Source: an uncultured Clostridia bacterium | GTDB lineage: Bacteria; Bacillota; Clostridia; Christensenellales; UBA1242 | Length of the DNA: 64,000 bases | Reading direction: 5' to 3' | Assembly (NCBI GenBank): GCA_944345545.1 | Contig: CALVMK010000062.1 | Span: 4,538-68,537, forward strand | Shown here: piece after piece, positions 8,301 through 57,394 of the stretch | Layout: the number at the start of each line of letters is the position of its first letter | Position numbering within the stretch: position 1 is the first letter of the stretch | The notes under the pieces: generated by a model | Seen by the model: only the letters and a program-made list of their open reading frames with translations | What the model was told of the DNA's origin: nothing | Database searches by the model: none | Position numbers and translations under genes: made by a program

Positions 8301-11300
8301 CATTATCTGCCACTTCACTTCCTGCAACAACTTCGCCAGTGTTATAACATTCATTAATATTAACCGCAATGTTAACATCAATGTTTTCATTAACAAAGCC
8401 TAAAATTCCGCCCGCAGTTATGTCTACATAAACAATGATATTATTATCATCTACACTGGTCTCTTCTAAAGTGTTTCTATTACCAATACTTTTAACGCTA
8501 GAAGATATGTTAGCACATTTAGAAATTTCCACACTTCCACTTTCTGCATAACCAACAATACCACCAGCATTATTAAATCCAGTTATAGAAGAATTAATAA
8601 CATAACAATTAGTTATGATTGCATCTTTTGCAATTCCCGCAATACCACCAGCCGAACTATTTAGTTTATATTTAGAAGAATTTGCAAAATTTTCTACTGT
8701 TACGTTTTCAAGAATAACATTCTTTATTTCTGCTGGATTAGCTGTTTCTAACCTAGGCCCAACATAACCAAACAAGCCAGAAGCTATCGAATTTTGATAA
8801 ATATTATTTTTTGTATTATCAAAACCTACAATTTCAACATTTGATATTATATTATCATTCCCATTGAAAGTTCCACTAAAATAATTATTTTTTTCATCAA
8901 GATATTGATTAGTAGAATTTAAAGTTCCAACTGGGTTGATAGTTTCAACCTCAGCACTTTCGAAATCTATGTTATAAATAAGTTCAAAATGTGCGTCCCA
9001 ATTATATAAACTTGTTCCATAATAATCTGATTGGATTGTTACAATTTTTCCATTTCCACCAGATTTTGTTAATTGTTGCCACTTTCCTGCACTTTGAATT
9101 TGGAAAGGATTTTCTTTAGTGCCATCACCTGTTTCAACAATCATATAGTTAGAAACATTGCCTTCAGCCATAAATCCTGTTCCACCAAAATATGGATAAC
9201 CGTAGTTTATTAACGGATTTTGTGTAAATTTTATTGTTGAAAGATTATCGTTTAAAATACCTGTGTTAAATGTTGTTCCATTAAATGTGTATGTTGACAT
9301 ATCATCAACAGTTAACTCCTTCACATTATTAGAAGAAATTTCTGTAGAATTTATGTCGTAATAATTAGATTCTCCTGCACCTTTACCAAATACACCTATT
9401 TCGCCTTTTGTTACGGCATCAGTCTTAACTTTAGCTTTTGCAATGCTATAACTGTTTGAAACGCTATTTTCATTTTCGTCGTAACTAAATGAGTAAGTAT
9501 AACCGTTAGTAAAGTTAGCATTATTTTGAACAAAGCCAGTGCTATAACATGAATCTATTTGCCCTTTGTTTTTACCAACTAAACCAGCTAGGTATACATT
9601 TTCAACTGTAGAAGAATCTGTTACTATATCAACCATTGAGAATGAATCAGCGATATATCCAGTTGTCTCGTTTATAGCAACTAATCCACCTACAATTAAA
9701 TTATTAACACTAACATTTTCTGTTCCATAAGTGTCAGGGACATTATTAACACTAATACCACCAGCAGTTCCCATTGTAGTTTGCACTTTAGCATCATCAG
9801 ACCTATTTTGTGAGTTGATTGTGTTGCACGCATAAACTATGCCTTTATTTATTCCAACAAGCCCACCATAATAAGCAGTTGCAATTTTTGATGTTGAATT
9901 ATTTTCACCAGCAATTTCTTCTACATAATAATGCGTTAATTGTGAGTCGTCATAAGTTCTAATGTCAACTGCAACTTGAACTCCAGTAACAAAACTATTT
10001 TCATCTAATATGTTAATAAAGTTGTTAGATATGTAATTATTTGAAGAATCAATTTCAGTTTCTATTGAAATCTTTATTCCATCTCCAAAAATTGCACCAT
10101 TGTTTAAAGTAATGTTTTGAATATTATAAACTGCGTTATCAACACTATCAATACTATCAATTACAAAATATTTTCTTTCTGGCATTGCAGTAGAGAAAGG
10201 ATCTTCACCATAAGCACCTAAATATAAATTATAAACGCTTTCAGCAACTTCCTTATTTTCAATTATTGCCCAATTTTTGCTAGTAGTGTTATATTCTGCA
10301 ACATTATTGTTATTAGCTTTAATATAATTCCCTTCGATATGGAAAGGATTTAACTTACTTCCATAATGAACACTAGAAATTAAATTGATAGTTGATTGGA
10401 AATTTTGATTATTAGAAATATTACTTAATGTTTGCTCATAACCAATGTTTTTTACAACTAAAGAATTAACTTCAGTATCTGTAGCTGTCATCAAAGCAAG
10501 TTGGTTAGAATAATAATTTTGAAATTCAGAATTACCATCTGTTGAAGTTGCATTGCTAACTGCACCCATTAATGCCCCAATATGACTATTTTCATCTCTT
10601 GAATATGGGAATATAATGCTAGCTAATGAATAATTTGTATGTAAAATTGCACCTCTTGCCCCTAATCCAACTAAACCGCCCACATAAGAAACACTAGAAG
10701 GTTTTTGTTTGAATTGCAAATCTGTGTAAGTTAAATTGTAAACTATTTTAACATTTGAACTGTCGCTATCGCTAACTGAACCTAAACCAGATAAACTGCC
10801 TACAATTCCGCCTACCCTAACACTGTTTGGAGCAATTTCTTTATTAGAGCCTACTATTATTTCTCCACCAGAAACAGAATTTGTAATACGCATGTTTAAA
10901 ATATTAGATTGCAATGTTGTTTTTTGAGTTGGAACTGCCCCTACAATTCCACCATAAATTATTTTTTTAGCATTAATATCAAAATATGATTCATTTAATG
11001 TGTTTTGAATAGTAGATATAACCCCACTAGATTCTTCACCATTAACACTATAACCAACATATCCAACAATACCAGCAAAAACATTATCTTTTTCAGCATT
11101 ACAATTAAAATCTAAACTTAGGCTTGACCATAAATAGTTGGCATTAAATGATTGCTTCACATATCCAACTACACCACCTACGTAAGAAACAGTATTTGAT
11201 GTGATTTCTACTTCACCATCAGTTTTTACATTATTTATAAGCAGTTTATCAGTTACATTTCCAAGAGCACCGCCAAAATAGAATATTTCATCTGAATTAT

Positions 11301-14300
11301 CATTATTATCATAAATATCAAGTTTTATATTGTTATTAACAATGTATCTAAAAGGTAAATTAGAATTTAATTCATCAACTAAGAATTGATAGCTAGTAGA
11401 ACCTGAAAGACTACCAAATAGTCCACCAACACTACCTGTTTTTGCTTTAACTTCTTTAGCATCATCTTCATTATCAGTTAGTAATGAATATAATGAATAA
11501 TTGAAGGTTAAACCATCTTGTCCTGAATATTTTTGTGCAAGATTTGCATCTACACTTCCAACAACTTTACCAATTAAGCCACCAGCATTTAAAGTGTTTA
11601 TATAATAATTTTCTCCACACAAAATATTAGTTTTTAAATTGAATTCACTATCATTGATATTTTCATAATTAATTAAGTCAAGGTCAATACTTCCAGAAGC
11701 ACCTGCTATATGTCCTACATTTAATGACAAATCTTTATTAGTATTGTTTAAAGGTTGTAAATAAATGTTTATAAAGCTGTCATTAAATTTTATATTGCTT
11801 ATTTTTGATACACTTGAAGCTGTTCCTAAATATCCTGTTAAAACACCTACTGAAATCTCCATTTTATTTGGAAGTTTATTTAACAAGTCAGTATCACTTG
11901 GAATTTTAACTTCAACTTCATTTCCAGCGTTAGTTGTATTATCAAAATTGATATCTGAGAATGAAGATTTTTCTGCAACAGCACACAAAAGCCCTATATT
12001 ATATCCATTAGATTCTGTGGAAGGTATTGTATAAGAAATTGAACAATCTCTAACAGTGATGTTGTTAAATGTTGTGCCAGTAGCAGTGTTTACCAAGATT
12101 GATGATATATTTGGTCTGTAATCATAATCAGCACTTACACCTTTACCAACACCAGTAATAACAAAGTTAGAGAACTGAGCTCCAGTCAATGTTCCATTAA
12201 ATAAAGGTGCTGTTATTTTTTCCGTTGAATTATAAACTGTAAAGTCAAAACCATATTCTTCAGTGTCAGTTCTTCCACGAAGTAAGCCAGAAAAACCATC
12301 TACTGTAAAACCTTGTTTAGTTGTTGCAAGGTAATCTCCAACTTTAATTATACAACCATCTACATCATTACCTACTATTATAAATGTCTTGTTTTTATAT
12401 TGTTGTAAATATACTAAATCAGAAGCTTCTCTAATATAAATTACAGAAGGCTCTACTTTAAATGTTAAATGTGGGAATAAGTGAGGAACTGAATCTTCTG
12501 TTTCTGTAGTCCAATATTCTTGGTCCCAACCAGCATTTCTAAAGATTTTATTCATTTCATTTGCATAATCGACAAGAGAAGAATTTATAAGTTCGCTTAT
12601 CTTTTGCACATCTGTTGAAATCATTATTTCGCCATTCAATTCTTCATTAGGATTTTCAGAAATAACAGCAGAGCTTAAAGATTTATTAAAATAGAACTCA
12701 TCATTATTTGTCAATATTTTTTCTAGAGCATTTACATCATAATTTGTTTGATTTATTAATATGTTTAATGCGTTTGAACCTTCAGGCATAAAGTATATGT
12801 CATATACATTATTAAGATATTTCTTTCCGTCTTTAATTGTATATTCACCACTTAAAGTGCCTTGTTTTTCTGGAACAGATAGATAGTTAATTGCGTTTAT
12901 TTTTTCAAGTTCTATTTGCTTCCATACACCATCTTCAATAAGTCCAAATATTCCACCCGCACCAGTATTAGCTAATAAATCACCTGTAGAATAAAGTTCA
13001 CTAAATGTTAATGAATATGTTTGATTATATCCATAGTCATTTAATCCCCCAAAGCTAGAATTATCTCTATCAGTAATTGCTCCAATAATTCCGCCAGCGT
13101 ATTCAGCTAATGTTGAAGTAACATTTAATTTAGAATAAGCTTTATCAAGTTTACCAGTAACAAACTCTCCAACTATACCACCTATAAATTTAGGCTTGTA
13201 ACTTGTTGAGTTTTCATATTCAAATAGTTTTAAATTCCCCCTATTTATTTCTGCACTAGAATTATTGTAATAATTAGAATAATTATTTTCAATTTCAAGT
13301 TGGTCGTTAGAAGAATGTTCTGTTCTAACCATGAATAAATATCCATAATTTTCACCAACTATTCCACCTGCGGCGAATTTATATGCAACAAGCTTTTGAG
13401 AATATTCTCCTTGACTTGAAGAAATTTCATATAAAGCATCTTGCAACATTGTTTGAGGACCTAAGAAACCAACAATACCACCTACTGTTGCACCATAAAC
13501 GCTTGTGTTTCCGCTTGCTTTTAAACCAACAGCATTAGGGTCGGATAATATAGTAGAAAATTTATAGTCATTTATATTAGTATAAATGTCAATAACACCT
13601 GCAATTCCACCAGCATAAGATATGTTATTTCTAATAGAACGATTGTAAAATTGTTGTGAAGAACTGCCAACATCATTACCTGCTACAACTGTTAAATTCT
13701 CTACTGAAATATTGCTTAAGTAACTATTTCCTATAATTCTTCCAGCAACACCACCCGCTAAGTTATAGCCATAGATAACAGCATTTTCACTTGCTAGTCC
13801 ATTAGAAATGTTTATGTTAATTATTTTAGAGTCTTTAATAGTTCCGCTAAGAGCTCCAACATAATTAACCCCAGTAGCATTTACACCTTTAATTTCAAGG
13901 TTTAAATTCATTATAACGGCACCATTATCAAGTTCTTTAAATAAACCATAACTAGTGTTTGCCCCACCTAATGTGGAAACAAGTTCAATTCCTGAAACAG
14001 TAAAACTGTTACCATCAATTAGTCCTAGGCCATTAACTTCACCATTATTGCTATAGGTTGGAACTAAAGACATTTCTGTAGACCTTAAAGTCAAGCCAGT
14101 TTCATCAGAAAGCAAACTAGAAAGATCTATATTATCAACAATTCTGTAATTACCAAAAACCTTATTTTGAACAAGGTCATAATAGAAAGCAACACTAGAG
14201 CTTACATTTGCTGTATCTCCACCAAAAACTTGATTAAACTCATCAGCATTTCTAATTATGATAGGATTTTTACTGCTTCCATATCTATAGCCATCTGCAT

Positions 14301-17300
14301 AAACAAAACTATAATCAACAATATCACCATCTGAATTTGTTTCTTCAACTTTTAAAATTCTTGAAGAAATTGCAATATTATTTGCACTAACAAGTTCAGG
14401 CCCTTGAACTGTCATATACCAAACGCCATCGTAAGTATTTCCTTCAACTGAACTATTTGAAAATGCAAAACCATAAAAGCTATCTTTAACGTCAGGGTCT
14501 ATTATTCTGTTTACAGATGTGTTATATAAAGATTCCATATCTGTGCCAGCATATTCATCATCTAAAGAAGTATCTGAATTATAATAATAACAATTTTCAA
14601 CTAAACCATAGTTTTGCAAATCTAGATTGACATCAACGCCTAAGAAATTCATTTGAGTGCTGTTTGAATTTTCAATTCTAGAAGCCGAGTAACATCTTCT
14701 AACAATACCGTCAGAAGTGTTTATATAAACAAAGCCTGCACTTAATCTTCCGCTTTCTTTATCACCTAATGTTGTCAACATTATGTTACTGTAAGAATCT
14801 TCAACAATTCCTTCATTTTGATAAACAAAACCTGCACTAACACTTGCCGTTTGAATTCCAGCTCCTGTTGCATGAATTTCATAACTATTTGCATACACAC
14901 CTTTAGCATAACTTAGCCTTATTTCACCAAGGTTATTTATAACAAATCCTGCAGTAGAAGTGTCAGAGCCACTTGATGTTTGATTAACAATTGTTCCATT
15001 CATAAAGAAGCTAGAAGCTATAATTCCTGTGTTTTCATAAACAAACCCAGCAATATTTCCCTGTGCAACAATGTTAAATACAGTTGGAATAATAGATGTG
15101 CTATTAGCAACTTCTAAGCTTAAACCACCCACTCTGCTGTTAGTAATAGAACCATTATTATTGTTTACAACAAACCCTGCCACTCGACTTTGAACTTTAT
15201 CTATATCAATATTGCTATAACCATAGTTTACAACAATGCCTTGAGTTGAAGGTTCTGGTCTTCCCGTTCCATTTACGTAATAAGACACAACTTCACAGTT
15301 TGTAATAATACCGTTATTGGTAATTGCAAAACCAGCAATGTCTACAGATGTAACATTGGTCATACTTAAATTGATGTTTCCACCAAAATAAGTGTTTACC
15401 CTAATATTTTTTAAAGTTGTATCCTGACTTACTTCATCAAACAACGCTAATTTTATTGAAGATTGCTCGTTAGAAACATTGTAGCTTAAAATATGAATTG
15501 TTTTATTGTTTCCATCAAAGCTTCTAATCATTGAAGTACTAATAGGAGTGTAGTCTAAAAGATATATATCTTCTGTTAAAATATAATCTAAAGCTTCTTC
15601 GTTGTTAACAATGTTTAAAAATTTTTCAGCTGAATCAATGATAACTGGTTTATCTTCATTTGTTTCCAAAACTACATTGATAGTAAAGTAATATTCAAGA
15701 TATGTTTTTGTTGGCTCACTTGTGCCATTAGGAATTTGAATTGGAATTCTTAGCAACAAATTTACGCTACCAGTTGTAGCTTGAAGTCCACGTACATAAA
15801 GATTAGAACCGTCATAGCTAAAAGCACAGTAATTGTTAGAAGATATTTGCCCACTTTGTCTATTAAATACTTTGCTAAGTTCAATTCTATCAGGGTTGTA
15901 AGTATCAGCATAGTAAAGATTATCAATGAAATTTGCAACAATAACTCCATTTGAACTATCTAAGTCAAAATCGTATGGCAATTCATCATAAAAACCATTT
16001 ACAATGTAACTATTTTTTTGGTCGTAAGTTTCTTCTGGGTTAGAATTATAATATTTATATTGATTAAATAAATTTAAACTATTAGGAAGATAACTATCAA
16101 CATCAAAGTCAAATTCTAATTTTTGAGTTGTTCCTACATACAAAGTTAAAACATCTTTATTGTACGCATCAGTTTTTAATTGAGTACCTTCAGGATTAAT
16201 CACAAAATCTGTGATTGCCACATAAACAACATCTTCAGCCGTTTCAACAACTCCGTTAATAACTCTTCTTGTAGTTGCTGTTACAATTATGTAATTATCT
16301 CCATTTTTTGGAGTTAAATCTGTGCTTGCATATAGTGTTGTTGTGTAATTTTTTAAACCAGTATTTTCATCAACAGTGTAAGTTAGTGGGTCATAACTTA
16401 CAGTTCCGCTTTCAACATTCTCTATACCTAAAGCATCAATAGTTTGGTCAACATTAACACTTATTGTTACCTCTCCAGAACCTCCTCTTGCAATAATAGC
16501 TTGCTTATCACCATTAACATTTAAGTCTGGCTTTGAAACATGCTGAACAGACAACATAAACTTATTTGTTTTTAAAGCTTCACCATTTTCATTATAAGCA
16601 GTGATAGAAAGCTCATAAATTGTATCGGCGTCAACATCTGAAGGAATGAAAGTTCTCAAATATAACGAACCAATATCTTGAGAAAGATTAGGTTTAAATA
16701 TTCTTATACCATTTGTAATGGTTTCATAACCAAAAGTTTTTCTTACAAATTTAGTTCCATCAACTTTTTCCATTAACCCAAACTTAACTTGATAAGAAGA
16801 ACCTAATATAGTGTTTGATGTTACTTCAATATAGCTATAATTAGAGTATGTAGGATAAAGTTCTACATTTAATAGCCCTTCTTTACCAGGAGCAAGTAAG
16901 GTTTTTGGAATAGTATCATAAACATAATGCATTCTATCAGAACCCTGATAGTCTTCCCAAATAGTAGAATTTAACAAATAATGAGAAGTGTTTATGTAAG
17001 ATAATTGTTGAGTTTCTACAGTAAGATTAAAAGTTGTAGAAACTTTAGTACTGTCAGCATATAATGAAATCTCAAATAATTGACCATCATAATTTAATGA
17101 TTTTAACGAATCATCAAGAATTCCAAATGAAACTTCATAAATTTGTTTAAAATATTTTGCATCTTGAGAATAGATGTCTTCCACAATTTCAGTCATTTCT
17201 TTATTTTTGAAAGCAACTACACCAACATTTTCAATTCTTATGCTTACAAAACCATTTGAAAAAATTCTATAATCATCATAAATATCTATACTTTCAACAC

Positions 17301-20300
17301 CAAAATAACCTATAACTTCTTCTTGAGTAAATGTTCCATCTTCATTATGTTTGGTGATTGTGGTAGTAATTCCATTGTAATTAGAAAAACCATTTTCTTT
17401 TAAAGCATCGCTATTTAAAAAGCTAGCCATTAAATCATCACATTGGTTGCCATTTTCATCTACGTTTTTATCAGTATAAATAACAACTTGAACTGTTTGA
17501 GCAAAAGAATCTACTGGCTCTATTGAAAGTTCATTTGTTTCAGCTTCGATTTTATCTGCTCCATTGTAAAGTTTAACATTAAAAGATTTTACATAAGTTT
17601 CAGCTATTGCATTGTTATATATTTCGTCTAAACCGTTTACATATAATTTTAAGCTTACCTTTATGTTATCATAAACATAATCTTGGATTTTAGCGGTAAC
17701 TATATTATGTACACCAATTTTGGTTCCATCAATTTCCAACCCAACAGTGCTTGGTTCTCCATTAATATCAGTTATAACACTAAGAATCTCTAAATCGTTT
17801 TGTTTTAAATTTATTGCTCTATTTATTGCAATTTTTGATGTTGAAATGGAAGAAGAAACAGAGTCAGAATCTCCGTGTTTTATAGATATAGTAGAATCTA
17901 CACCAAGTTCCCTACCAAAGTAATCAAGTTTAAAATCTTGAATTTTATAAATTATAGTTGCATTATACTCTTTTTTTAATGTGTAATCATATTTTGAAAA
18001 GACTGTAAATGTAAAAGTTCCTGTTACAACATCATTAACAGTTAAATATTCAGAGCCTGTAAACAAAGGAGCATTGTTGCTAACACTTATTCTAATAGAA
18101 GATGTATTGTTTAAACCAAAAAGTGTTTTTAAACTAATAGTATTCCAACTAGCAACAACAGCATTTTCCATATCTGTTAACGACATGCCTTCTGGTTCAT
18201 AATAGAAGAATATTACATAATTTTCATTGTCTTCAGTTTTAAAGGCTAAAGATAAATCAGTGTTTTTGATATCAAATTCACTTATAGAATCAAGTTCTTT
18301 TTCCTGCATGATTGCATTAAAATAAGGATATCTATTATTAGTTAAAGAATCAAAATTCCAAAGTTTATCAGACCCAAAAGAAATGTTTTTGTAAGCATTT
18401 CCATTATCTGGGTAAGTAGGAGGATTATCTATTTCAAGACTATTTGCAATAATTCTATATTCACCACTTTCGCCAAACAAGTATGCGTTTTGCACGTAAG
18501 AAATCAAGGTTATGTTATCTTCATTTCCTGCAAAATTGGAGTTTTTAACACTTGCAAAACATGCATTAACTTCACCGTTAGAAATTTCGCCAACTAAAGA
18601 GCCTAAACTAGAACCTTCATCTAAACCAATTAACACGCTTTCATATGCATTATTATCACCATTAACTTTTACGTAAGAATATGCAAAACTAAATGATAAT
18701 GTTCCATCAGTCATTTTTCCAACTAGTCCACCAACTACATTACCTTTAATGTTAGAAAAAGCATTTTCATATCTATAAAATTCCACCTTACAATAACTTA
18801 TATTGCCAGAATTTTCTCCTGCAATTCCACCAACATAAGATAAGGCGTTTTCATTCGTAACAATACCGTAAAAATTACAATTTGTAATTGTTCCAATATT
18901 AACACTAGCAATTCCACCACTTACATTTTTATCTAATCCATCAATGTTTAAGTTTAAAATATCATTATCTGTAAGAGCTGTAACTGTGCTAGCTTTATAT
19001 TCATCTCCGTCTACCCATGTATCAACAACAACATTGTTAATGGTTCCATTATTAATTAAAGCAACAAAAGCTCCTTTTGCTTCACCAACAAGTGTTACAT
19101 CTTCAACAATAGCACTATTTCCAAGCGTAGTGAACAAAGAAGTTTCACTTAAAATTATAGTGTGAGTAACATCATCTCCTATTTTTTTAGCAAAGAATCC
19201 ACCATTAAATGTAACCGTTTTACCATTATAAGTGTCTAGTGGAGATGTTAAAGGTTGTTGCAAATCTTTTGTTAAAGTGTAATACAAGTCTGGATACTCT
19301 TGTATATAAGCTTTTATTGTATCAATATCTTCTTCTTCATAAGAAGTTTCTCTTGACCTTCCATCTGCAACTTTAACTGGAATATATCTTGCAACATCTT
19401 CTTCACCAACAACATATCTTCCATTAATATAGCAATCTTCTGGTGCAATTCTAATATAACCCGTTCCACCAATAATTTGGTTTTTAGATAGGGTTATTTT
19501 ACCCGTATTATCAACAGAAATAAGTGTTGGAGAAGAATTACTATTAGGTAAAAATTCATAAATTAAATTCGTGTTTAAAGGGTTATTAGATGTGTCCGCA
19601 TGGGCTAAAACATAAGTAATTTGGTCTTGTCTTTCATCTTCGCCTTCAAATTTTTCGATTTCTAAATAAACACCATTTTCTTCAGTAACATTATCTAGTA
19701 TAATATTTTCAACCTTATTTGCTCTACGTATTGTTAAATTGAATGCCCTATTTATCTCTTGTCCAAATTCAACTGCTTTAACTAAAATGTTGTCAGTAAT
19801 CATATTTGCAATAGCAAGTCCACCAGCCACAAGTTGATAGGTTGATTCAGCATTTATTGAAACAGAGTTTGTTTCAGTTATAGTAATTGTATAAAGAGTC
19901 TTTCTATCTAATTCATTAGCTTCTTCAACTAACACAACATCAATGTCCGTAGTTCCAGAAACTTCATTTCCTTGAATAAACCAAGAAAGTTTGTTATAAG
20001 TTGGTTGATTTTGAACATTTCCATTATTAAAAATAACATTAAAATTAACAAAAGTTGAATTGATGTTAGCATCACCAACACTATCTTTTGAATAAAGGGT
20101 TGCACTTGACCTAGAAAGCAACATTGAAGTAATTGGCACATAACTTTCTATGATAAAATATTTTGTAATAGTATATTCAACCTTTTTACCATTTTGCAAA
20201 GTAAAACCTGTTATTTTTGCCCTTACAAGAACCTTTCCTTCACCAGATGCAATAATTTGATTATAATTATTAAGATATAAAGAATTTACTATAGAAGAAG

Positions 20301-22326
20301 TTGATTGATATTCGTTATCTGCAGGAAGTCCGCTTAAAAAAGCGTTTTGATATCCTTCGGCATAAGCATTTTCAAAATCTGCATTTTGTCCTAAGATAAT
20401 GTCATTGCTAAAATCGTATTTAACATTAACATTAGTGTTAGCATTGATTTTTAAATTGACATTTTCACCCCTTTTTATTGAAGCAATAAAAACATCTTGC
20501 CCATCAATAGTGGCTGTTAGCACTCTGCCAATGGAAGAAGTTTCTTGTGGAGTTGGAACAGCCAATGTAACATTATCATCTAAAGCTTTAAAAACTTCTA
20601 CTTTAGCTTTTAAAAGTTGTCCATTTGAAAATCTTATTCTAAGTTCACCAATCTCCTCAAAGTTTTCCTTAGATGTTATTTCAATATAATAAAGATTATA
20701 TGTTTCCCCATCTTTATCGGTCGTGCCCTTATAAATAGGTTGAGCAGATGCTATTTCAAAAGCATTACCAACAGATGTTAAAACGACATCACCAATAACA
20801 GAATTTGTTGGGGAAACAAGAAACTCTATTTGCTTGGTCATAGATTCATTTGAAGTTAAATAAAAAACACTATTTTCACCTTCTTTAACAGCATTATTAA
20901 ATTCAACTTTTTTAGCCCCAACTTTAGGGTTTAAGCTTAAATCTATTGATACATTTTTATTGGCATCAGAAACTACTTTAATATTTCCAGCAACATTTAC
21001 ATTGCCATTTGCAACTACATAAATGGTTGCTCCGCTTGTGGTTTTAATGACATTTTTATCACCTTCTGTTGTATAATTTAATATATTTCCATTAAAATCA
21101 TAAAATATAAAGTTACCAAGTGTCCCTGTTCCTAATTCTATTGTAAGCCCCCTATCACCTTCTGGAACTGTTGATGGGCCTATAACAAAAGATAATTCAA
21201 GACCTCTTACATTTGCATAAAAATCATAAACATCAAAACTTGTTTTATTTTCTACAAGTTCACCCTCTTGATATGTTCTTATAACTGAAACAGTGTCATA
21301 TGCAGATATGATAACTTTTTCAGTTGTAATTTTTTGATCATACTGCGAATGTTTAATTTCAAATACAAGTTCATCAGACCCTACATCACCTTTTGGACTT
21401 ATATAAAAATTATAAACTGAGCCAACAATAGAAGATGATACAACTTCAGCTATATCCCCAAATTTAAACTTAGGTGTAATTATATAATCTGCACTATTAG
21501 CAAGAATTGTAATTAAAAGACTATTTCTACTTTGTAGATTGTTTGCAATTTTAAATTCATAATAACCATTATTGTTTTCTTCTGGAGTAATTGGCTCTTG
21601 ATTTTCACCATTATTGTAATAATAATATTGTGAATACGTTATAGGATTTAAAACATTCAAAAGAATTCTTGTTGTTATTTGAGAATTAGATTTGCTTGTT
21701 GCGATAATTTCAATAGTATTATCAACAGAAACATAATCTTCCGTTACAACTAAAATGTTGTTGTTAATGCTTGCACCAAAAATATTTTCAGCAAGAGAAA
21801 ACTCTACATCTTTTTCCGTTGTATCTATTGGAGAAAAAGAAATCAATTCATTGGTTAAGTTTTTTGGAGTGTTTATTGTAACAAAAGCAAGCGATAAATC
21901 AGAAGATTGTTGAATAGAAGAAACTTTTTTTATTGAACTAACATAAAAACTTGAACTTTTTTGACCATCTAAAGCCGTTACAACAACTTGAACATTATTA
22001 ACTATTCCAGTAGCTGTAACTGTTATTTCACTGATGTTTCCACTAACAAACTTTGTTTTAGCAACAACCTTTTCACTAGTAGTGCTTGCTAAAACTTGTT
22101 TGCTAACATTGTCGGGAGCACCTTCAACAGAAACAGCAAAAGTGCTACTTGCAGTGTTATCTTCCCCTAATTCTAATACAAGTTGATTTTGAACTAAAGA
22201 ATCAGGTAAAACAACTTTAACATTTTTATAAGGGTCGCCACATGCAGTAAGCATAAAAGAAACGCCTACGATTAACATAAGCATCAATGCTATAGGAAAG
22301 GTTAAAGTTTTCTTTAAAAGTTTCAT
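5350..22326 (-). CDS. Giant surface lipoprotein, 5658 aa: Ig-like modules alternating with at least five blocks of GLUG-like beta-helix repeats (putative adhesin or envelope protein)
   Basis: Uninterrupted 16977-nt ORF in the supplied track. RBS is ACGGAGGAAGA-ATG. The N-terminus MKLLKKTLTFPIALMLMLIVGVSFMLTAC|GDPYK is a lipoprotein signal. Motifs of the form (A/V)GG(I/L)(V/A)G.N.G.I..(C/S) recur many times, for example YVGGIAGENSGNISYC, VVGGLVGKMTDGTL, AGFVYENTGIIASS and AAGGIVGENYGYLF. Block starts resemble G(T/S)..NP(F/I).I. Confidence 0.9.
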   Translation of the reverse strand: MKLLKKTLTFPIALMLMLIVGVSFMLTACGDPYKNVKVVLPDSLVQNQLVLELGEDNTASSTFAVSVEGAPDNVSKQVLASTTSEKVVAKTKFVSGNISEITVTATGIVNNVQVVVTALDGQKSSSFYVSSIKKVSSIQQSSDLSLAFVTINTPKNLTNELISFSPIDTTEKDVEFSLAENIFGASINNNILVVTEDYVSVDNTIEIIATSKSNSQITTRILLNVLNPITYSQYYYYNNGENQEPITPEENNNGYYEFKIANNLQSRNSLLITILANSADYIITPKFKFGDIAEVVSSSIVGSVYNFYISPKGDVGSDELVFEIKHSQYDQKITTEKVIISAYDTVSVIRTYQEGELVENKTSFDVYDFYANVRGLELSFVIGPSTVPEGDRGLTIELGTGTLGNFIFYDFNGNILNYTTEGDKNVIKTTSGATIYVVANGNVNVAGNIKVVSDANKNVSIDLSLNPKVGAKKVEFNNAVKEGENSVFYLTSNESMTKQIEFLVSPTNSVIGDVVLTSVGNAFEIASAQPIYKGTTDKDGETYNLYYIEITSKENFEEIGELRIRFSNGQLLKAKVEVFKALDDNVTLAVPTPQETSSIGRVLTATIDGQDVFIASIKRGENVNLKINANTNVNVKYDFSNDIILGQNADFENAYAEGYQNAFLSGLPADNEYQSTSSIVNSLYLNNYNQIIASGEGKVLVRAKITGFTLQNGKKVEYTITKYFIIESYVPITSMLLSRSSATLYSKDSVGDANINSTFVNFNVIFNNGNVQNQPTYNKLSWFIQGNEVSGTTDIDVVLVEEANELDRKTLYTITITETNSVSINAESTYQLVAGGLAIANMITDNILVKAVEFGQEINRAFNLTIRRANKVENIILDNVTEENGVYLEIEKFEGEDERQDQITYVLAHADTSNNPLNTNLIYEFLPNSNSSPTLISVDNTGKITLSKNQIIGGTGYIRIAPEDCYINGRYVVGEEDVARYIPVKVADGRSRETSYEEEDIDTIKAYIQEYPDLYYTLTKDLQQPLTSPLDTYNGKTVTFNGGFFAKKIGDDVTHTIILSETSLFTTLGNSAIVEDVTLVGEAKGAFVALINNGTINNVVVDTWVDGDEYKASTVTALTDNDILNLNIDGLDKNVSGGIASVNIGTITNCNFYGIVTNENALSYVGGIAGENSGNISYCKVEFYRYENAFSNIKGNVVGGLVGKMTDGTLSFSFAYSYVKVNGDNNAYESVLIGLDEGSSLGSLVGEISNGEVNACFASVKNSNFAGNEDNITLISYVQNAYLFGESGEYRIIANSLEIDNPPTYPDNGNAYKNISFGSDKLWNFDSLTNNRYPYFNAIMQEKELDSISEFDIKNTDLSLAFKTEDNENYVIFFYYEPEGMSLTDMENAVVASWNTISLKTLFGLNNTSSIRISVSNNAPLFTGSEYLTVNDVVTGTFTFTVFSKYDYTLKKEYNATIIYKIQDFKLDYFGRELGVDSTISIKHGDSDSVSSSISTSKIAINRAINLKQNDLEILSVITDINGEPSTVGLEIDGTKIGVHNIVTAKIQDYVYDNIKVSLKLYVNGLDEIYNNAIAETYVKSFNVKLYNGADKIEAETNELSIEPVDSFAQTVQVVIYTDKNVDENGNQCDDLMASFLNSDALKENGFSNYNGITTTITKHNEDGTFTQEEVIGYFGVESIDIYDDYRIFSNGFVSIRIENVGVVAFKNKEMTEIVEDIYSQDAKYFKQIYEVSFGILDDSLKSLNYDGQLFEISLYADSTKVSTTFNLTVETQQLSYINTSHYLLNSTIWEDYQGSDRMHYVYDTIPKTLLAPGKEGLLNVELYPTYSNYSYIEVTSNTILGSSYQVKFGLMEKVDGTKFVRKTFGYETITNGIRIFKPNLSQDIGSLYLRTFIPSDVDADTIYELSITAYNENGEALKTNKFMLSVQHVSKPDLNVNGDKQAIIARGGSGEVTISVNVDQTIDALGIENVESGTVSYDPLTYTVDENTGLKNYTTTLYASTDLTPKNGDNYIIVTATTRRVINGVVETAEDVVYVAITDFVINPEGTQLKTDAYNKDVLTLYVGTTQKLEFDFDVDSYLPNSLNLFNQYKYYNSNPEETYDQKNSYIVNGFYDELPYDFDLDSSNGVIVANFIDNLYYADTYNPDRIELSKVFNRQSGQISSNNYCAFSYDGSNLYVRGLQATTGSVNLLLRIPIQIPNGTSEPTKTYLEYYFTINVVLETNEDKPVIIDSAEKFLNIVNNEEALDYILTEDIYLLDYTPISTSMIRSFDGNNKTIHILSYNVSNEQSSIKLALFDEVSQDTTLKNIRVNTYFGGNINLSMTNVTSVDIAGFAITNNGIITNCEVVSYYVNGTGRPEPSTQGIVVNYGYSNIDIDKVQSRVAGFVVNNNNGSITNSRVGGLSLEVANSTSIIPTVFNIVAQGNIAGFVYENTGIIASSFFMNGTIVNQTSSGSDTSTAGFVINNLGEIRLSYAKGVYANSYEIHATGAGIQTASVSAGFVYQNEGIVEDSYSNIMLTTLGDKESGRLSAGFVYINTSDGIVRRCYSASRIENSNSTQMNFLGVDVNLDLQNYGLVENCYYYNSDTSLDDEYAGTDMESLYNTSVNRIIDPDVKDSFYGFAFSNSSVEGNTYDGVWYMTVQGPELVSANNIAISSRILKVEETNSDGDIVDYSFVYADGYRYGSSKNPIIIRNADEFNQVFGGDTANVSSSVAFYYDLVQNKVFGNYRIVDNIDLSSLLSDETGLTLRSTEMSLVPTYSNNGEVNGLGLIDGNSFTVSGIELVSTLGGANTSYGLFKELDNGAVIMNLNLEIKGVNATGVNYVGALSGTIKDSKIININISNGLASENAVIYGYNLAGGVAGRIIGNSYLSNISVENLTVVAGNDVGSSSQQFYNRSIRNNISYAGGIAGVIDIYTNINDYKFSTILSDPNAVGLKASGNTSVYGATVGGIVGFLGPQTMLQDALYEISSSQGEYSQKLVAYKFAAGGIVGENYGYLFMVRTEHSSNDQLEIENNYSNYYNNSSAEINRGNLKLFEYENSTSYKPKFIGGIVGEFVTGKLDKAYSKLNVTSTLAEYAGGIIGAITDRDNSSFGGLNDYGYNQTYSLTFSELYSTGDLLANTGAGGIFGLIEDGVWKQIELEKINAINYLSVPEKQGTLSGEYTIKDGKKYLNNVYDIYFMPEGSNALNILINQTNYDVNALEKILTNNDEFYFNKSLSSAVISENPNEELNGEIMISTDVQKISELINSSLVDYANEMNKIFRNAGWDQEYWTTETEDSVPHLFPHLTFKVEPSVIYIREASDLVYLQQYKNKTFIIVGNDVDGCIIKVGDYLATTKQGFTVDGFSGLLRGRTDTEEYGFDFTVYNSTEKITAPLFNGTLTGAQFSNFVITGVGKGVSADYDYRPNISSILVNTATGTTFNNITVRDCSISYTIPSTESNGYNIGLLCAVAEKSSFSDINFDNTTNAGNEVEVKIPSDTDLLNKLPNKMEISVGVLTGYLGTASSVSKISNIKFNDSFINIYLQPLNNTNKDLSLNVGHIAGASGSIDLDLINYENINDSEFNLKTNILCGENYYINTLNAGGLIGKVVGSVDANLAQKYSGQDGLTFNYSLYSLLTDNEDDAKEVKAKTGSVGGLFGSLSGSTSYQFLVDELNSNLPFRYIVNNNIKLDIYDNNDNSDEIFYFGGALGNVTDKLLINNVKTDGEVEITSNTVSYVGGVVGYVKQSFNANYLWSSLSLDFNCNAEKDNVFAGIVGYVGYSVNGEESSGVISTIQNTLNESYFDINAKKIIYGGIVGAVPTQKTTLQSNILNMRITNSVSGGEIIVGSNKEIAPNSVRVGGIVGSLSGLGSVSDSDSSNVKIVYNLTYTDLQFKQKPSSVSYVGGLVGLGARGAILHTNYSLASIIFPYSRDENSHIGALMGAVSNATSTDGNSEFQNYYSNQLALMTATDTEVNSLVVKNIGYEQTLSNISNNQNFQSTINLISSVHYGSKLNPFHIEGNYIKANNNNVAEYNTTSKNWAIIENKEVAESVYNLYLGAYGEDPFSTAMPERKYFVIDSIDSVDNAVYNIQNITLNNGAIFGDGIKISIETEIDSSNNYISNNFINILDENSFVTGVQVAVDIRTYDDSQLTHYYVEEIAGENNSTSKIATAYYGGLVGINKGIVYACNTINSQNRSDDAKVQTTMGTAGGISVNNVPDTYGTENVSVNNLIVGGLVAINETTGYIADSFSMVDIVTDSSTVENVYLAGLVGKNKGQIDSCYSTGFVQNNANFTNGYTYSFSYDENENSVSNSYSIAKAKVKTDAVTKGEIGVFGKGAGESNYYDINSTEISSNNVKELTVDDMSTYTFNGTTFNTGILNDNLSTIKFTQNPLINYGYPYFGGTGFMAEGNVSNYMIVETGDGTKENPFQIQSAGKWQQLTKSGGNGKIVTIQSDYYGTSLYNWDAHFELIYNIDFESAEVETINPVGTLNSTNQYLDEKNNYFSGTFNGNDNIISNVEIVGFDNTKNNIYQNSIASGLFGYVGPRLETANPAEIKNVILENVTVENFANSSKYKLNSSAGGIAGIAKDAIITNCYVINSSITGFNNAGGIVGYAESGSVEISKCANISSSVKSIGNRNTLEETSVDDNNIIVYVDITAGGILGFVNENIDVNIAVNINECYNTGEVVAGSEVADNGSFSDPSMADSAYAGGILGAGFTNRSEDYSNLDQETIDKIVNGEINSIITIKDCYNKGNIRANANVPDPENNRYFNLGKLDDDGNFIEDENGDVQQFNDAYKLVAKTYLMHSKYENSMAQGDHNYQSIIYAVYIRMVMRDAYASGIANNDADIISCYNIGEITNNEDDIVETIKKETNGVKNEDIKGRIDITYSLLAENYVAGRSGEFNMYTTQEVGKEEGDIPEGSVFRRDWSVVNGKVTRDGKNAGADLQIELPTLTSKVVEITSVSSGMSALAGAGTAITTKLISKGIGKLVTAVVPVAGVIAEAAILILFWDNPKSDTCLLVPNADGNINIIVGENSVGIYSIQTSELTHDNLIMNTSYYNNTLVGEGENKKGLTYDDDVEMFTGSYVAPIGYNSDILNSFSVANTCKTDGDNYNTGKTQSKENVMYDDFNGINDECANLTIDELKNMATYGETTIDYTNIIDDGDQYIYYTDRDEITINSAEYQVNTLTYKDNQYLYFSEEYSVESEPSKQDYFVVQTDNGKQILNTKDYSIFDLETTLDENYKEYYTGAGSLINKNITNYQRIYYQSGSITTSGNTATIKNPYVIIYEDVNDNVGRIVRLTEEGGTLTFNLKSNETSTEYINDYKNISITGGEPEEALKGFAGYLVKGVLGENSFTTDENGNVTGIAQNGYDYSFDKTKDYQTVCTIGFNDITIGQAYIINDNPLYLGEISNKITFEEKSDEFYSYEINGETKQKNIITYSYEIDGTPVIENPYYIYDSQNNKVQISLQPVFEGDLANVNLIYRSYPKDGGICYVIGYLRQRTISKEFISEEQQTIINDAIDNGSAQNGGSFKAQIWDFADSGAWTIDSSGIINDGLPYLKNLPIDSYSYVSYDNSNNTYNVYISQDDSKAKTLQIGETLTLFKDTENVDYKIIDGVHYIGYVQSGEETIYIASYKVFDLGIVSFTRYWTWEDYYSITVDANDYIYTEKFNGVLFKK

Positions 22327-47058: not shown

Positions 47059-47140
47059 GCGGGCGTGGCGGAATGGCAGACGCGCTTGTTTAAGGGGCAA
47101 GTGGGAAACCGTATGGGTTCAAGTCCCGTCGCCCGCACCA
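47059..47140 (+). tRNA. tRNA-Leu (type II, long variable arm); the anticodon reads AAG in my fold; CCA is encoded
   Basis: Acceptor: GCGGGCG/CGCCCGC. D arm: GCG-GAATGGCAGA-CGC. Anticodon stem: CTTGT/GCAAG. Anticodon loop: TT-AAG-GG (47090-47096). Variable arm is 11 nt. T arm: ATGGG-TTCAAGT-CCCGT. Discriminator is A, followed by CCA. Very similar overall to Bacillus tRNA-Leu. Confidence 0.85.
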
Positions 47141-51882: not shown

Positions 51883-52044
51883 ATGGAAAACAAAAAATGG
51901 CGTCCAGGAGAACAAGCTCCTCAAAGCGGTAACTACACAGCTTATGACAGTCAAGGGCATAACGGTGGCTCTACCTATCTTGAAAAAGGACAAAGATTTC
52001 CTGCTACTCAACATTCTGGTAGTTACTACGAATTAGAACAATAA
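51883..52044 (+). CDS. YjzC-like small protein (53 aa; below the ORF-track length cutoff)
   Basis: Hand-translated as MENKKWRPGEQAPQSGNYTAYDSQGHNGGSTYLEKGQRFPATQHSGSYYELEQ. Strong RBS ACGGAGGTAAAAA-ATG. The pattern PG(E/Q)KAP.SG.Y....G......L..G..FP.T is as in YjzC-family proteins. Confidence 0.7.
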   Translation: MENKKWRPGEQAPQSGNYTAYDSQGHNGGSTYLEKGQRFPATQHSGSYYELEQ

Positions 52045-52110
52045 TCTTTGTGCCGAGCTTTTCTCTCTTTTCAACTCGGCATACTCCTTTTGCTTAGTCC
52101 TAATTGGACA

Positions 52111-55542: not shown

Positions 55543-55632
55543 GAAATAATTTAGTTGTGCAATGTAATAGATTTATAAAAATAAATTTTTATTGTGTAAA
55601 AAGAATTACAATAAAATTTTTATAAACTAAAC

Positions 55633-55666
55633 AAAAAACCCTAAACGAATTGTTTAGGGTTTTTTG
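55633..55666. terminator. Bidirectional terminator between argS and the convergent secreted-protein gene
   Basis: AAAAAACCCTAAAC-gaatt-GTTTAGGGTTTTTT, a 10-bp stem flanked by an A-run and a T-run. Confidence 0.8.
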
Positions 55667-55707
55667 TATTTAATTGAAAAGAAATTTTATTTAGGACTTT
55701 TAATTTT

Positions 55708-55732
55708 TAACTCTTAATAGGACTTAGAGTTA
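55708..55732 (-). promoter_or_regulatory. 3'-UTR hairpin abutting the stop codon, with loop motif AAGUCCUA
   Basis: Stem TAACTCT/AGAGTTA (7 bp). The 11-nt loop contains ATAGGACTT on the plus strand, which is AAGUCCUAU in mRNA sense. Confidence 0.5.
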
Positions 55733-56326
55733 TTAAGCAGCAGGTGTAATGTCTATATCAAAAGAAACATTAGATGCATCAAGTGTTTGTGAAACATTGT
55801 TTAATGTCAATGTATAAACATATTCAACATATTTTCCAGAAGCAAGACCTTCCAAATCTGATGCAGTTCCTGCTCCATCTTCAGTTTGATATGAAATAAC
55901 AGCATCCACAGTTTCACCAGCTGCATTTGTTGGAGTAACAACTATATCAATAGCTTTTTCAGGTGTATCATTTGTAAATTTAAAAACATATTTAATTGTT
56001 TGTCCAGCGCCTTCAGCAAAAGCTAATGATCCAATATTCCATGCTCCACCTGTGAAATTAGCAGAATCTCCACCAGCTTGAGCAGTAAATGTTTCGTTAG
56101 ATTGTGCAGTTAATACAGTATAGTTTTTAGCTGTAACTGTTTTATTTATGCTATCTCCACCAGAAACTGTTCCTACAAAAGTAACATAAACACTGGTTGA
56201 TGAGAAGCTTACAGTTGAATTTACTGTCAATGATACAGAAGTAGCAGCTAAAACACCAATTGTCATCATGCAAACTGCAAGTGCAAGAGAACCAATTGTA
56301 GCAAAAAGTTTAAATTTCTTTTTCAT
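55733..56326 (-). CDS. Small secreted beta-rich protein (197 aa), probably abundant
   Basis: Signal peptide MKKKFKLFATIGSLALAVCMMTIGVLAA|TS. Strong RBS TTTAAGGAGGAAATTT-ATG. Near-consensus promoter. Thr/Ser/Val-rich mature part with no recognisable family. Confidence 0.7.
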   Translation of the reverse strand: MKKKFKLFATIGSLALAVCMMTIGVLAATSVSLTVNSTVSFSSTSVYVTFVGTVSGGDSINKTVTAKNYTVLTAQSNETFTAQAGGDSANFTGGAWNIGSLAFAEGAGQTIKYVFKFTNDTPEKAIDIVVTPTNAAGETVDAVISYQTEDGAGTASDLEGLASGKYVEYVYTLTLNNVSQTLDASNVSFDIDITPAA

Positions 56327-56389
56327 AAATTTCCTCCTTAAATTATTTGAAAAATTTCTTTAATTTTCCCTTAAACTTAATATATATTC

Positions 56390-56418
56390 CATGTCTATAA
56401 GTCCTAAAAACAGACATG
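56390..56418 (-). promoter_or_regulatory. 5'-UTR hairpin 2, with loop motif UUAGGACUU
   Basis: Stem CATGTCT/AGACATG (7 bp). The 15-nt loop ataAGTCCTAAaaac on the plus strand reads ..UUUAGGACUUAU.. in mRNA sense. Confidence 0.5.
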
Positions 56419-56462
56419 AAAAAATAAGCGTCGTTTAAGAGTTCAAAATTTAACCTAAATTT

Positions 56463-56485
56463 GTTAAGGCTTAGGACTCCTTAAC
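56463..56485 (-). promoter_or_regulatory. 5'-UTR hairpin 1, with loop motif AGUCCUAAG
   Basis: Stem GTTAAGG/CCTTAAC (7 bp). The 9-nt loop CTTAGGACT on the plus strand reads AGUCCUAAG in mRNA sense. Confidence 0.5.
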
Positions 56486-56510
56486 CCCCTTAAATTAAAT
56501 TTGATACCTT

Positions 56511-56539
56511 ATTGTAAAATTTATGCAAAATTTTGTCAA
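56511..56539 (-). promoter_or_regulatory. Promoter of the 197-aa secreted-protein gene
   Basis: On the minus strand, TTGACA (56539-56534), 17-nt spacer, TACAAT (56516-56511). This implies a 5' UTR of about 178 nt. Confidence 0.6.
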
Positions 56540-56576
56540 ATAAATTAAACAAGTTTTTTTATTTTTTTTAATCTTT

Positions 56577-56604
56577 TTGATTTTTATTTTTTTAGTGCTA
56601 TAAT
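56577..56604 (+). promoter_or_regulatory. Extended -10 promoter of the TIM-barrel gene
   Basis: TTGATT (56577-56582), 16-nt spacer ending in TGc, TATAAT (56599-56604). Confidence 0.55.
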
Positions 56605-56620
56605 CCATTTAGGATAACAT

Positions 56621-57394
56621 ATGAAAAAAGGAATTAGTTTTTACTTTGGTTATAACATAAAACCTAAAATACGTGCAATACTTATTAAGGAAGCAGGGTT
56701 TACTTCTGTTATAACAACTGCCGATAAAAAATTTAATAAACAAAATGGCAACATAAAAACTCAAGTTAAATATTTTAAAAAAAATAATTTAGAACTTTCA
56801 AGTTTGCACATGCAATATATTTCAAACGAACTGCCAAATTTTTGGAAAGAAGGTAAAATTGGCGAGCATTTAAAACATCAACTTATAAAAGATGTTATAA
56901 TAGCAAAAAAATATGGTTTTTCTTGTGTTGTTGTTCATGTTGACGGAAAGTATTCCCCTATTGGAGAAAAAAGAATTAAAGAAGTTTTAGACTTTTGTGA
57001 AAAAGTGCAAATTCCACTTGCAATAGAAAACACCCATTCTCAAAAACTTTTTTTAGACATATTTAATAAAATTTCAAGTCCTATGCTTAAATTTTGTTAT
57101 GATTCTGGTCACAACAATGCTTTCGACAAAGATTTTGATTATTCAAAAAAATACTTCGATAAGCTAATAGCATTACATTTACACGACAACAATGGAACTG
57201 CAGATCAACACACTTTAAACAAGTTTGGCAACATTAATTGGAAAAACATTGCAAGTAAACTTAAAGGAAAAGACAAATTAAGCTTAGACTATGAAATATT
57301 ATCTCCCATAGAAAACAACATGAAACCAGAAGACGTTTTAAAAGAAATAAAAAAGCAAGCTGACGAACTTGAAAAAATGATTTTAAAAATCTAG
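56621..57394 (+). CDS. Xylose-isomerase-like TIM-barrel protein (sugar phosphate isomerase/epimerase or AP-endonuclease-2 family)
   Basis: ..CVVVHVDG.., ..PLAIENTH.., ..FCYDSGHNN.. and ..ALHLHDNNGTADQH.. match the metal-ligand pattern of this fold. Confidence 0.6.
   Translation: MKKGISFYFGYNIKPKIRAILIKEAGFTSVITTADKKFNKQNGNIKTQVKYFKKNNLELSSLHMQYISNELPNFWKEGKIGEHLKHQLIKDVIIAKKYGFSCVVVHVDGKYSPIGEKRIKEVLDFCEKVQIPLAIENTHSQKLFLDIFNKISSPMLKFCYDSGHNNAFDKDFDYSKKYFDKLIALHLHDNNGTADQHTLNKFGNINWKNIASKLKGKDKLSLDYEILSPIENNMKPEDVLKEIKKQADELEKMILKI

Follow-up and report, generated by a model that had tools for sequence, protein, structure and literature searches.

Complementary GGACU and AGUCC motifs in the untranslated regions of a variable surface-protein gene family: a probable RNA control element in uncultured gut Clostridia

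To our knowledge, conserved pairing of the two untranslated regions (UTRs), 5′ with 3′, has been documented for only a handful of bacterial messenger RNAs (mRNAs), namely hbs, icaR and RNAIII/hld, and in none of them is the pairing common to a gene family or shown on covarying hairpin loops. Here we describe a 64-kb stretch of DNA from an uncultured Clostridia bacterium (contig CALVMK010000062.1, hereafter the window) in which hairpin loops in the 5′ UTR of a secreted-protein gene carry GGACU or its complement AGUCC, with further AGUCC copies in the 3′ UTR. In uncultured gut Clostridia, both motifs recur throughout a gene family that encodes variable surface proteins, and we consider the GGACU/AGUCC hairpins to be probably a real, previously undescribed RNA control element of this family. 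If the two UTRs indeed pair, we know of no earlier case of 5′-3′ UTR pairing conserved in evolution across a whole family, and the family would provide a natural set of variants for testing how closure of a bacterial mRNA affects its decay and translation.

Functionally, the system appears most like the hbs mRNA of Bacillus subtilis, in which a 14-bp interaction of the 5′ UTR with the 3′ UTR protects the leader from RNase Y (Braun, Durand and Condon 2017, PMC5737220). Both are found in a Firmicute, and in each case the mRNA is short, is highly expressed (a prediction here) and has a structured 5′ UTR and a strong Shine-Dalgarno (SD) sequence. In both, roughly 10-14 bp of complementarity link the 5′ and 3′ UTR of one transcript, and protection from RNase is the proposed effect. 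The complementary segments lie on the same transcript and are kept among homologues, as in the hbs and icaR types of interaction. Unlike in hbs, the 5′ partner sits in terminal hairpin loops, often in two copies, and the motif is short (a 5-nt invariant core, 8-13 bp in total), repeated and common to a whole paralogous family. There is also an extra 5′ hairpin with the 3′-type motif, and the pairing here is predicted from sequence.

The 5′-3′ pairings of icaR and RNAIII in Firmicutes have been reviewed; in the icaR mRNA of Staphylococcus aureus, as here, a C-rich motif of the 3′ UTR (UCCCC in icaR) is complementary to a G-rich sequence in the 5′ UTR of the same mRNA (PMC7821165). The icaR 3′ UTR, however, targets the ribosome-binding site and the resulting duplex recruits RNase III, whereas the motif described here fits the upstream loops and not the SD. 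From what is generally known of its substrates, the predicted GGACU/AGUCC duplex is presumably too short for RNase III.

Other systems resemble single aspects of the locus. Leaders controlled by CsrA or RsmA, such as that of B. subtilis hag, likewise carry GGA in the loops of two 5′ UTR hairpins and again in the SD, but our core is GGACU and not A(N)GGA, it has a conserved complement in the 3′ UTR, and the product is a signal-peptide protein and not flagellin. The kissing loops of CopA/CopT and RNAI/RNAII and the 5′-3′ fold-back of hok also start an expression-controlling RNA-RNA interaction from complementary loops or ends. In those systems, which control plasmid copy number or toxins, the first loop contact is followed by longer complementarity, whereas here a single chromosomal surface-protein mRNA contains both partners in its UTRs. 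The vlp/vsp genes of Mycoplasma and the homopolymer promoters of Neisseria are similar in their conserved leader and signal peptide, hypervariable mature parts and homopolymer in the promoter spacer of paralogues; this likeness concerns the gene family and not the hairpin motif, and the window copy itself has no poly-G tract.

The GGACU/AGUCC hairpins belong to no Rfam family, Bacillaceae-1 included. The initial annotation of this stretch had likened them to the pyrimidine-rich, (R)UCCU-like terminal loops of Bacillaceae-1, a link that found no support: cmscan of the whole window at the Rfam gathering threshold found only a transfer RNA (tRNA), and when 55550-56650 was scanned permissively (E ≤ 10), all matches were below threshold and on the terminator, none of them to Bacillaceae-1. 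The host is moreover an uncultured member of the Clostridia and not of the Bacillaceae, and half of the loops carry the motif in the opposite sense. A T-box or tRNA-specifier element was rejected as well, with no Rfam match and the wrong architecture. Searching the literature for the motif strings turned up only papers on small interfering RNAs and microRNAs.

Motif copies and hairpins around the window gene

Four motif copies bracket the coding sequence of a 197-amino-acid secreted protein with a signal peptide (55733..56326, stop codon 55733-55735; identified by searches for open reading frames (ORFs), domains and structures). The gene and, except where noted, all its elements lie on the minus strand. 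The copies read TTAGGACTT at 55691-55699, ATAGGACTT at 55717-55725, AAGTCCTAA at 56399-56407 and TTAGGACT at 56471-56478. The last is an 8-mer and not a 9-mer, because 56470-56478 reads CTTAGGACT and the next base is C; apart from this one-base slip at 56470, the four copies and three 7-bp hairpins are where the initial annotation had placed them.

Two of the hairpins lie in the 5′ UTR. Hairpin 1 (HP1; 56443..56504, predicted by RNAfold), at the 5′ end of the mRNA, has an A/U-rich outer stem and a 7-bp inner stem of 56463-56469 with 56479-56485 (GTTAAGG/CCTTAAC), which closes the 9-nt loop AGUCCUAAG at 56470-56478. HP2 (56368..56441) is an extended hairpin found by RNAfold, by covariation and by a covariance-model match. 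Its 7-bp stem CATGTCT/AGACATG at 56390-56418 is lengthened by RNAfold to 12 bp (56410-56421 with 56387-56398) with the 11-nt loop UUUUAGGACUU at 56399-56409, and its outer stem CUCUUA/UAAGAG is conserved. HP3 (55708..55732), the first hairpin of the 3′ UTR, abuts the stop codon and has the 7-bp stem TAACTCT/AGAGTTA and the terminal loop AAGUCCUAUUA. The remaining 3′ UTR motif, AAAAGUCCUAAAU at 55689..55701, is predicted to be single-stranded, and a copy of it is found in every motif-bearing locus.

The placement of these elements in an mRNA follows from strong predicted signals. A sigma-70-like promoter at 56511..56539 (TTGACA, 17 nt, TACAAT; 11 of 12 consensus matches) puts the start of transcription near 56504, and a bidirectional intrinsic terminator, common to the convergent argS gene, lies on both strands at 55631..55667. 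Together they predict an mRNA with a 5′ UTR of about 178 nt, the length that had been proposed before, and a 3′ UTR of about 100 nt, the UTR ends being predictions from consensus promoter and terminator scans. The SD sequence AAGGAGG (56333..56339), conserved in the alignment, stands 6 nt upstream of the ATG at 56324-56326 and, like the promoter and the terminator, is strong. Both UTRs fold far better than shuffled sequences in RNAfold (z = −4.5 for the 5′ UTR and −6.1 for the 3′ UTR).

Judged on the 64-kb window alone, the motif is clustered only to a borderline degree. There are 6 copies of the 8-mer where 1.91 are expected, 3 of 100 shuffles also reach 6, and 4 of the 9 copies of the 7-mer lie inside 800 bp, a clustering equalled by 5 of 5016 rare 7-mers. 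The window by itself therefore proves nothing. The copies at 52096, 32536 and 61590 match the chance expectation; the one at 52096-52103 (AGTCCTAA), which had been counted as a fifth member of the set, is inside a GTCC/GGAC mini-stem and not in a loop, ahead of a terminator and downstream of a yjzC-like ORF of 53 amino acids (51883-52044, plus strand). We judge the motif to be real because it is conserved in the UTRs of homologues whose mature proteins share only 34-42% amino-acid identity.

Conservation, covariation and strand preference across the family

Homologous loci were collected from uncultured Clostridia assemblies (for example Candidatus Caccopulliclostridium), from assemblies with exact homologues and by a metagenome pattern scan for the 3′ module. 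The scan matched 85 stretches, of which three were genuine (L033, L050 and L111) and the others were chance matches in unrelated DNA. Genomes contain several paralogues each. About 14 distinct loci carry both motifs, among them L119, whose protein is only 33% identical. In these loci, every 5′ UTR has one or two hairpins that show the invariant GGACU in the terminal loop, and every matching 3′ UTR has one to three mostly single-stranded copies of AGUCC(U). The usual form of the 5′ loop is UUAGGACUU; the complement in the 3′ UTR is AAGUCCUAA, mostly in an unstructured A-rich stretch just 5′ of the terminator. The most distant relatives (L118 at 25% identity and L010-L012) have neither motif, and no locus carries just one of the two. 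Loop motif and complement are conserved jointly in the two UTRs across the family.

The loci fall into four groups by the layout of their UTRs. Group G1 comprises the window gene, L006/L021/L033, L009 and L013. Their HP1 shows AGUCCUA and their HP2 U(A/G)GGACU, the 3′ UTR contains AGUCCUA once or twice, and the promoter is plain, its −35 box and −10 region being kept in the alignment. In G2 (L003, L004/L050, L007/L025, L005/L030, L008/L016/L020 and L018), two hairpins near −120 and −64 from the ATG both carry UUAGGACUU and are matched by one single-stranded AAAGUCCUA; the promoters contain a poly-G tract in all members except L003, where none was found. G3 (L028) has two UAGGAC loops, one GUCCUA and a plain promoter, and G4 (L024, L029) has one GAGGACU loop, three GUCCU and a poly-G promoter. 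L119, which is ungrouped, has one UUAGGACUU at −64, one AAAGUCCUAAAC and a poly-G promoter. G1 and G2 types occur within one assembly in two cases (L004 and L006 in DVOJ01; L003 and L013 in CALVNP01).

Motif placement is strictly strand-specific by position. In 13 representative loci, the 5′ UTRs (2.6 kb) contain RGGACU 20 times and the 3′ UTRs never do, AGUCCY is found 17 times in 1.3 kb of 3′ UTR, and 7.5 kb of coding sequence have neither. The flanking DNA, about 108 kb, has a background rate of 0.055 per kb per strand, over which the two motifs are enriched about 140- and 240-fold. All 28 copies in the 5′ UTRs are in terminal loops of hairpins (−5.6 to −16.6 kcal/mol), and the universal 3′ copy is predicted to be unpaired.

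The stems around the invariant loop covary. Covariation was counted on a motif-anchored alignment of the proximal hairpin in 14 loci, and whole-5′ UTR alignments made with MAFFT and RNAalifold were not used for the counts. GGACU is the sole invariant block of this alignment, and the base before GGAC varies (UAGGAC, UGGGAC, GAGGAC). All 10 stem pairs show compensatory double changes, and 74% of stem cells are paired compared to 55% in shuffles. The covariation score of 0.507 was reached by none of 500 shuffles (0.218) and exceeds that of controls with a slid partner (at most 0.265). In HP1, one G-C pair is replaced by a compensatory A-U pair in L009/L013, and the homologue of HP3 in L006/L021/L033 has its stem altered to AUCUC/GAGAU. 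A covariance model of the hairpin, run against the 64-kb window, matched HP2 (56377-56430, 43.6 bits), the only other match being a weak one to HP3 on the opposite strand.

The same data bear on the strand. The sense strand folds better than the antisense strand in 11 of the 14 hairpins, and the stems contain U-G pairs that would be C-A on the opposite strand. Nucleotide identity between the window and its homologues is 72-95% in the UTRs and 75-87% in the signal-peptide region, where synonymous changes leave the protein sequence conserved, compared to 56-64% in the mature coding region. This contrast with the mature part holds even at syntenic loci, which suggests that the exposed domain is under diversifying selection or subject to cassette replacement. 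Because the stems covary, G-U pairs and folding favour the sense strand and the UTRs are better conserved than the mature coding region, we conclude, in line with the initial annotation, that the hairpins are selected RNA structures in the mRNA rather than DNA sites or footprints of recombination. The signals for expression in this family are thus under much stronger constraint than the mature protein sequences.

Pairing potential and competing explanations

The 5′ loops and the 3′ motifs can pair over 8-13 contiguous bp in groups G1-G3. The complementarity reaches past the core, since U flanks the copies in the 5′ UTR and A those in the 3′ UTR, and the change from UAGGAC to UGGGAC in L009/L013 still allows pairing through G-U. 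With pairing energies taken as the site-wise opening cost plus the duplex energy, the 5′ loop and the 3′ motif net −5 to −11 kcal/mol, so that the 5′-3′ pairing raised by the initial annotation is energetically plausible after correction for accessibility. Its suggestion that the motif acts as an anti-SD fared differently: the 3′ motif with the true SD nets about 0 kcal/mol (−4.6 to +1.4 across loci; duplex energy −4.6 in most loci and −6.5 in L009), which, set against the values for the loops, rules out icaR-style masking of the SD. The predicted kissing of HP1 and HP2 was borne out as complementarity, with 9-10 complementary nt, G-U allowed, in the window, L006, L009 and L013, that is, in all four G1 lineages and once via an A-to-G change that preserves a G-U pair. 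This complementarity is found only in G1; G2 has two loops of the same sense.

From the structures, their conservation, the distribution of the motifs and the energetics we infer a contact in cis. We tentatively favour the reading that the 5′ loops pair with the 3′ UTR motifs of the same mRNA and thereby affect its stability, its translation or both, and would give it a little less than an even chance. GGACU in a 5′ hairpin loop would form 8-13 bp with the 3′ motif and so join the ends of the transcript. In G1, the 5′-terminal HP1 carries AGUCCUA, which would allow it to kiss HP2 in competition with the 3′ copies, as we propose that it does. The outcome may be a control of mRNA stability, of translation efficiency or of both, as in hbs.

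Several observations weigh against this proposal. The near-invariance of the motif means that the partner sites show little true covariation, and the evidence on them consists of one G-U-compatible change and the complementarity of the flanks. The complementarity falls to 6 bp in G4. Copy numbers of GGACU and AGUCC are unequal (1 versus 3 in G1, 2 versus 1 in G2), and therefore a simple one-to-one closure does not account for them. The coupled presence and absence of the two motifs could reflect inheritance of one expression cassette and not functional coupling. Duplexes predicted by RNAduplex for whole UTRs are not better than those of dinucleotide shuffles, a comparison that is uninformative in such A/U-rich RNA because huge internal loops are allowed. 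Finally, the transcript ends come from consensus promoter and terminator scans, and the pairing, too, is predicted from the DNA.

The loops could instead be recognized by a protein. GGACU loops might be sites for a GGA-loop-binding protein, either of the CsrA/RsmA type or specific to the lineage, that represses or stabilizes the mRNA, with the AGUCC copies as internal anti-sites that mask the loops, or as incidental. The classical layout of a CsrA target is GGA in two hairpin loops and GGA in the SD, and here GGA is indeed found in the terminal loops of two hairpins and a third time in AAGGAGG, a feature that is not specific; GGAC(U) is invariant while the preceding base varies, and the distance from the proximal loop to the ATG is steady at −62 to −66 in G2, G3 and L119. 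What such a protein leaves unexplained is the exact complement, which is conserved strand-specifically in every 3′ UTR and is missing where the 5′ loops are missing. The C and U that invariably follow GGA, like the complementary A/U flanks, are also more than CsrA requires. By tblastn we found no csrA in the window or the fetched flanks, which is weak evidence since these are a small part of each genome and the queries were unverified versions of the B. subtilis and E. coli CsrA sequences. We regard this explanation as rather unlikely, and still more so one in which the hairpins are independent, generic stabilizers at the two ends of an abundant mRNA and the complementarity of their loops has no function of its own. 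5′-terminal stem-loops do stabilize mRNAs in Bacillus, HP1 begins within a few nt of the predicted 5′ end and promoter, SD and terminator are all strong. Stabilizing hairpins, however, need no specific loop, whereas here the stems drift around an invariant loop core and the complement is conserved in an unstructured 3′ stretch and not in a hairpin; this makes the stabilizer explanation very unlikely.

The same pairing could also act in trans, joining the mRNAs of different members of the family, and so rank the variants in their expression. A G1-type mRNA, rich in AGUCCUA (3 versus 1) and with a constitutive promoter, or a fragment of its 3′ UTR, would then pair with the leaders of G2-type genes, which are rich in UAGGACU loops (2 versus 1) and have phase-variable promoters. 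Both types co-occur in DVOJ01 (L004, L006) and CALVNP01 (L003, L013), the excess of motifs runs in opposite directions in G1 and G2, and the 3′ UTR resembles a small RNA with its hairpin, single-stranded seed, U-rich stretch and terminator. Whole mRNAs and 3′ UTRs that act in trans are known, for example RNAIII (PMC7821165). We arrive at action in trans purely by inference, however; every mRNA contains both motif types, so that pairing in cis is always possible and kinetically favoured, and no separate promoter or processing site was found for the 3′ UTR. On balance, action in trans seems unlikely to us. Least probable of all is a function at the DNA level, with the motif as an operator for a transcription factor, as the initial annotation had allowed, or as inverted recombinase sites that flip the gene for phase variation. 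The 5′ and 3′ copies do form inverted repeats around the coding sequence, the family is otherwise suited to phase variation by its poly-G promoters, and one locus, L111, lacks the gene cassette. Against this, the orientation of the gene relative to its promoter is identical in all 20 or so loci, the deletion junction in L111 lies away from the motif, the core is just 5-9 bp, and the sites are strand-specific by position and lie in the loops of covarying hairpins whose G-U pairs work on the sense strand only.

The GGACU/AGUCC pair could also be an RNA "address code" common to phase-variable surface-protein mRNAs, its pairing working either through mRNA closure or through titration of paralogues, an extension that we think improbable. 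By closure, ribosomes that terminate about 20-70 nt before the 3′ motif might be returned to a start site that lies about 50-65 nt beyond the 5′ loop. By titration, the constitutive, AGUCCUA-rich window gene might sequester the UAGGACU-loop leaders of its poly-G-switched paralogues, which would put a post-transcriptional hierarchy on top of promoter phase variation.

The encoded protein, phase variation and other features

The window protein has 96 database relatives and no match to a Pfam or NCBIfam family; a sub-threshold match to DUF11 was disregarded. Its N-terminal 41 amino acids (MKKKFKLFATIGSLALAVCMMTIGVLAA...) are nearly invariant among the relatives, the remainder being 25-50% identical. 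In the AlphaFold model (pLDDT 83), a beta-sandwich follows an N-terminal helix and makes up the hypervariable mature part, and Foldseek found weak pilin-like matches to it (TM ≤ 0.4). We consider the product to be probably a secreted surface protein, predicted to be highly expressed, and the hairpins to be probably cis-acting elements of its mRNA. A divergent AP-endonuclease-2-like gene adjoins in the window, L021 and L033, and argS stands on the other side in the window and L021.

Most promoters of the family outside G1 and G3 have a tract of seven to ten G (G7-G10) in the spacer that separates the −35 box TTGACA from a −10 box reading TAAAAT or TACAAT. Tracts were located at L008:2633, L016:1148, L020:1147, L005:2639, L030:1156, L007:2769, L025:1286, L018:1271, L024:1316 and L029:1315, and about −175 from the ATG in L119; L010-L014 are also listed with a tract. 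Its length differs between near-identical loci (97-99%): G8 in L016, G9 in L008 and G10 in L020, three loci with 5′ regions 97-98% identical apart from the tract; G8 in L005 versus G9 in L030; and G8 in L007 versus G9 in L025. Such differences are as expected for slipped-strand phase variation, and together with the hypervariable mature domain they indicate phase-variable surface proteins. The family, which is unannotated, thus probably consists of secreted, phase-variable surface proteins of uncultured gut Clostridia. Unlike most paralogues, the window gene and the other G1 loci have no promoter poly-G tract, so that homopolymer phase variation is not indicated for the window copy.

Other conserved blocks accompany the motifs. 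An A/U block 5′ of the SD (AAAGAAAUUUUUCAAA, 56347..56362) is invariant in the G1 and G2 alignments and absent in G3, G4 and L119, and the block AAAAUUUCUUUUCAAUUAAAU (55668..55688), between the 3′ motif and the terminator, does not vary in G1 and hardly does in G2 and L119. The A/U blocks AAAGAAAUUUUUCAAA and, 5′ of the terminator, AAAUUUCUUUUCAAUUAAAU are partly complementary and also direct near-repeats. As a second complementarity, we considered and rejected pairing of the 5′ block AAAGAAAUUUUU with the 3′ block AAAUUUCUUUU: their order is wrong for one helix, the blocks are direct near-repeats, and L119 has the 3′ A/U block without the 5′ one. A leader peptide was rejected as well. A 24-codon upstream ORF (56343-56417), whose ATG lies in the HP2 stem, extends across the motif, but it has no SD, the motif is in another frame in L009, and G2 has no ATG.

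Some members of the family differ from this layout. Upstream of one family gene, L004 has tandem poly-G promoter-like elements (L004:2510 with G9 and L004:2801 with G7). In L005, L008, L016, L020 and L030, extra leader segments of about 190 nt separate the poly-G promoter from the conserved leader start AAAUUUAAGGGG. The loci L010 (336-2858), L011 (362-2620) and L012 (3001-5475) encode proteins of 750-840 amino acids that resemble leucine-rich-repeat adhesins and have the N-terminal signal sequence and the poly-G promoter of the family but neither UTR motif. At L111 (match 3732-3757), downstream of rplQ, the promoter, 5′ UTR and coding sequence of the family gene that L016, L018, L020 and L030 carry there are missing, and the 3′ UTR module is kept, with the CUCUUA hairpin, AAAGUCCUA, AAAUUUCUUUUCA and the terminator. 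Either the gene has been deleted in L111 or the contig is misassembled there.

Elsewhere in the window, an ORF of 5658 amino acids (5350-22326, minus strand) has an N-terminal lipoprotein signal (…MLTAC|GDPYK) but lacks a Pfam domain and, by BLAST against itself, internal repeats; a similar lipoprotein N-terminus is found in the next ORF downstream. The tRNA gene, which is the sole match in the window at the Rfam gathering threshold, lies at 47059-47137 on the plus strand.

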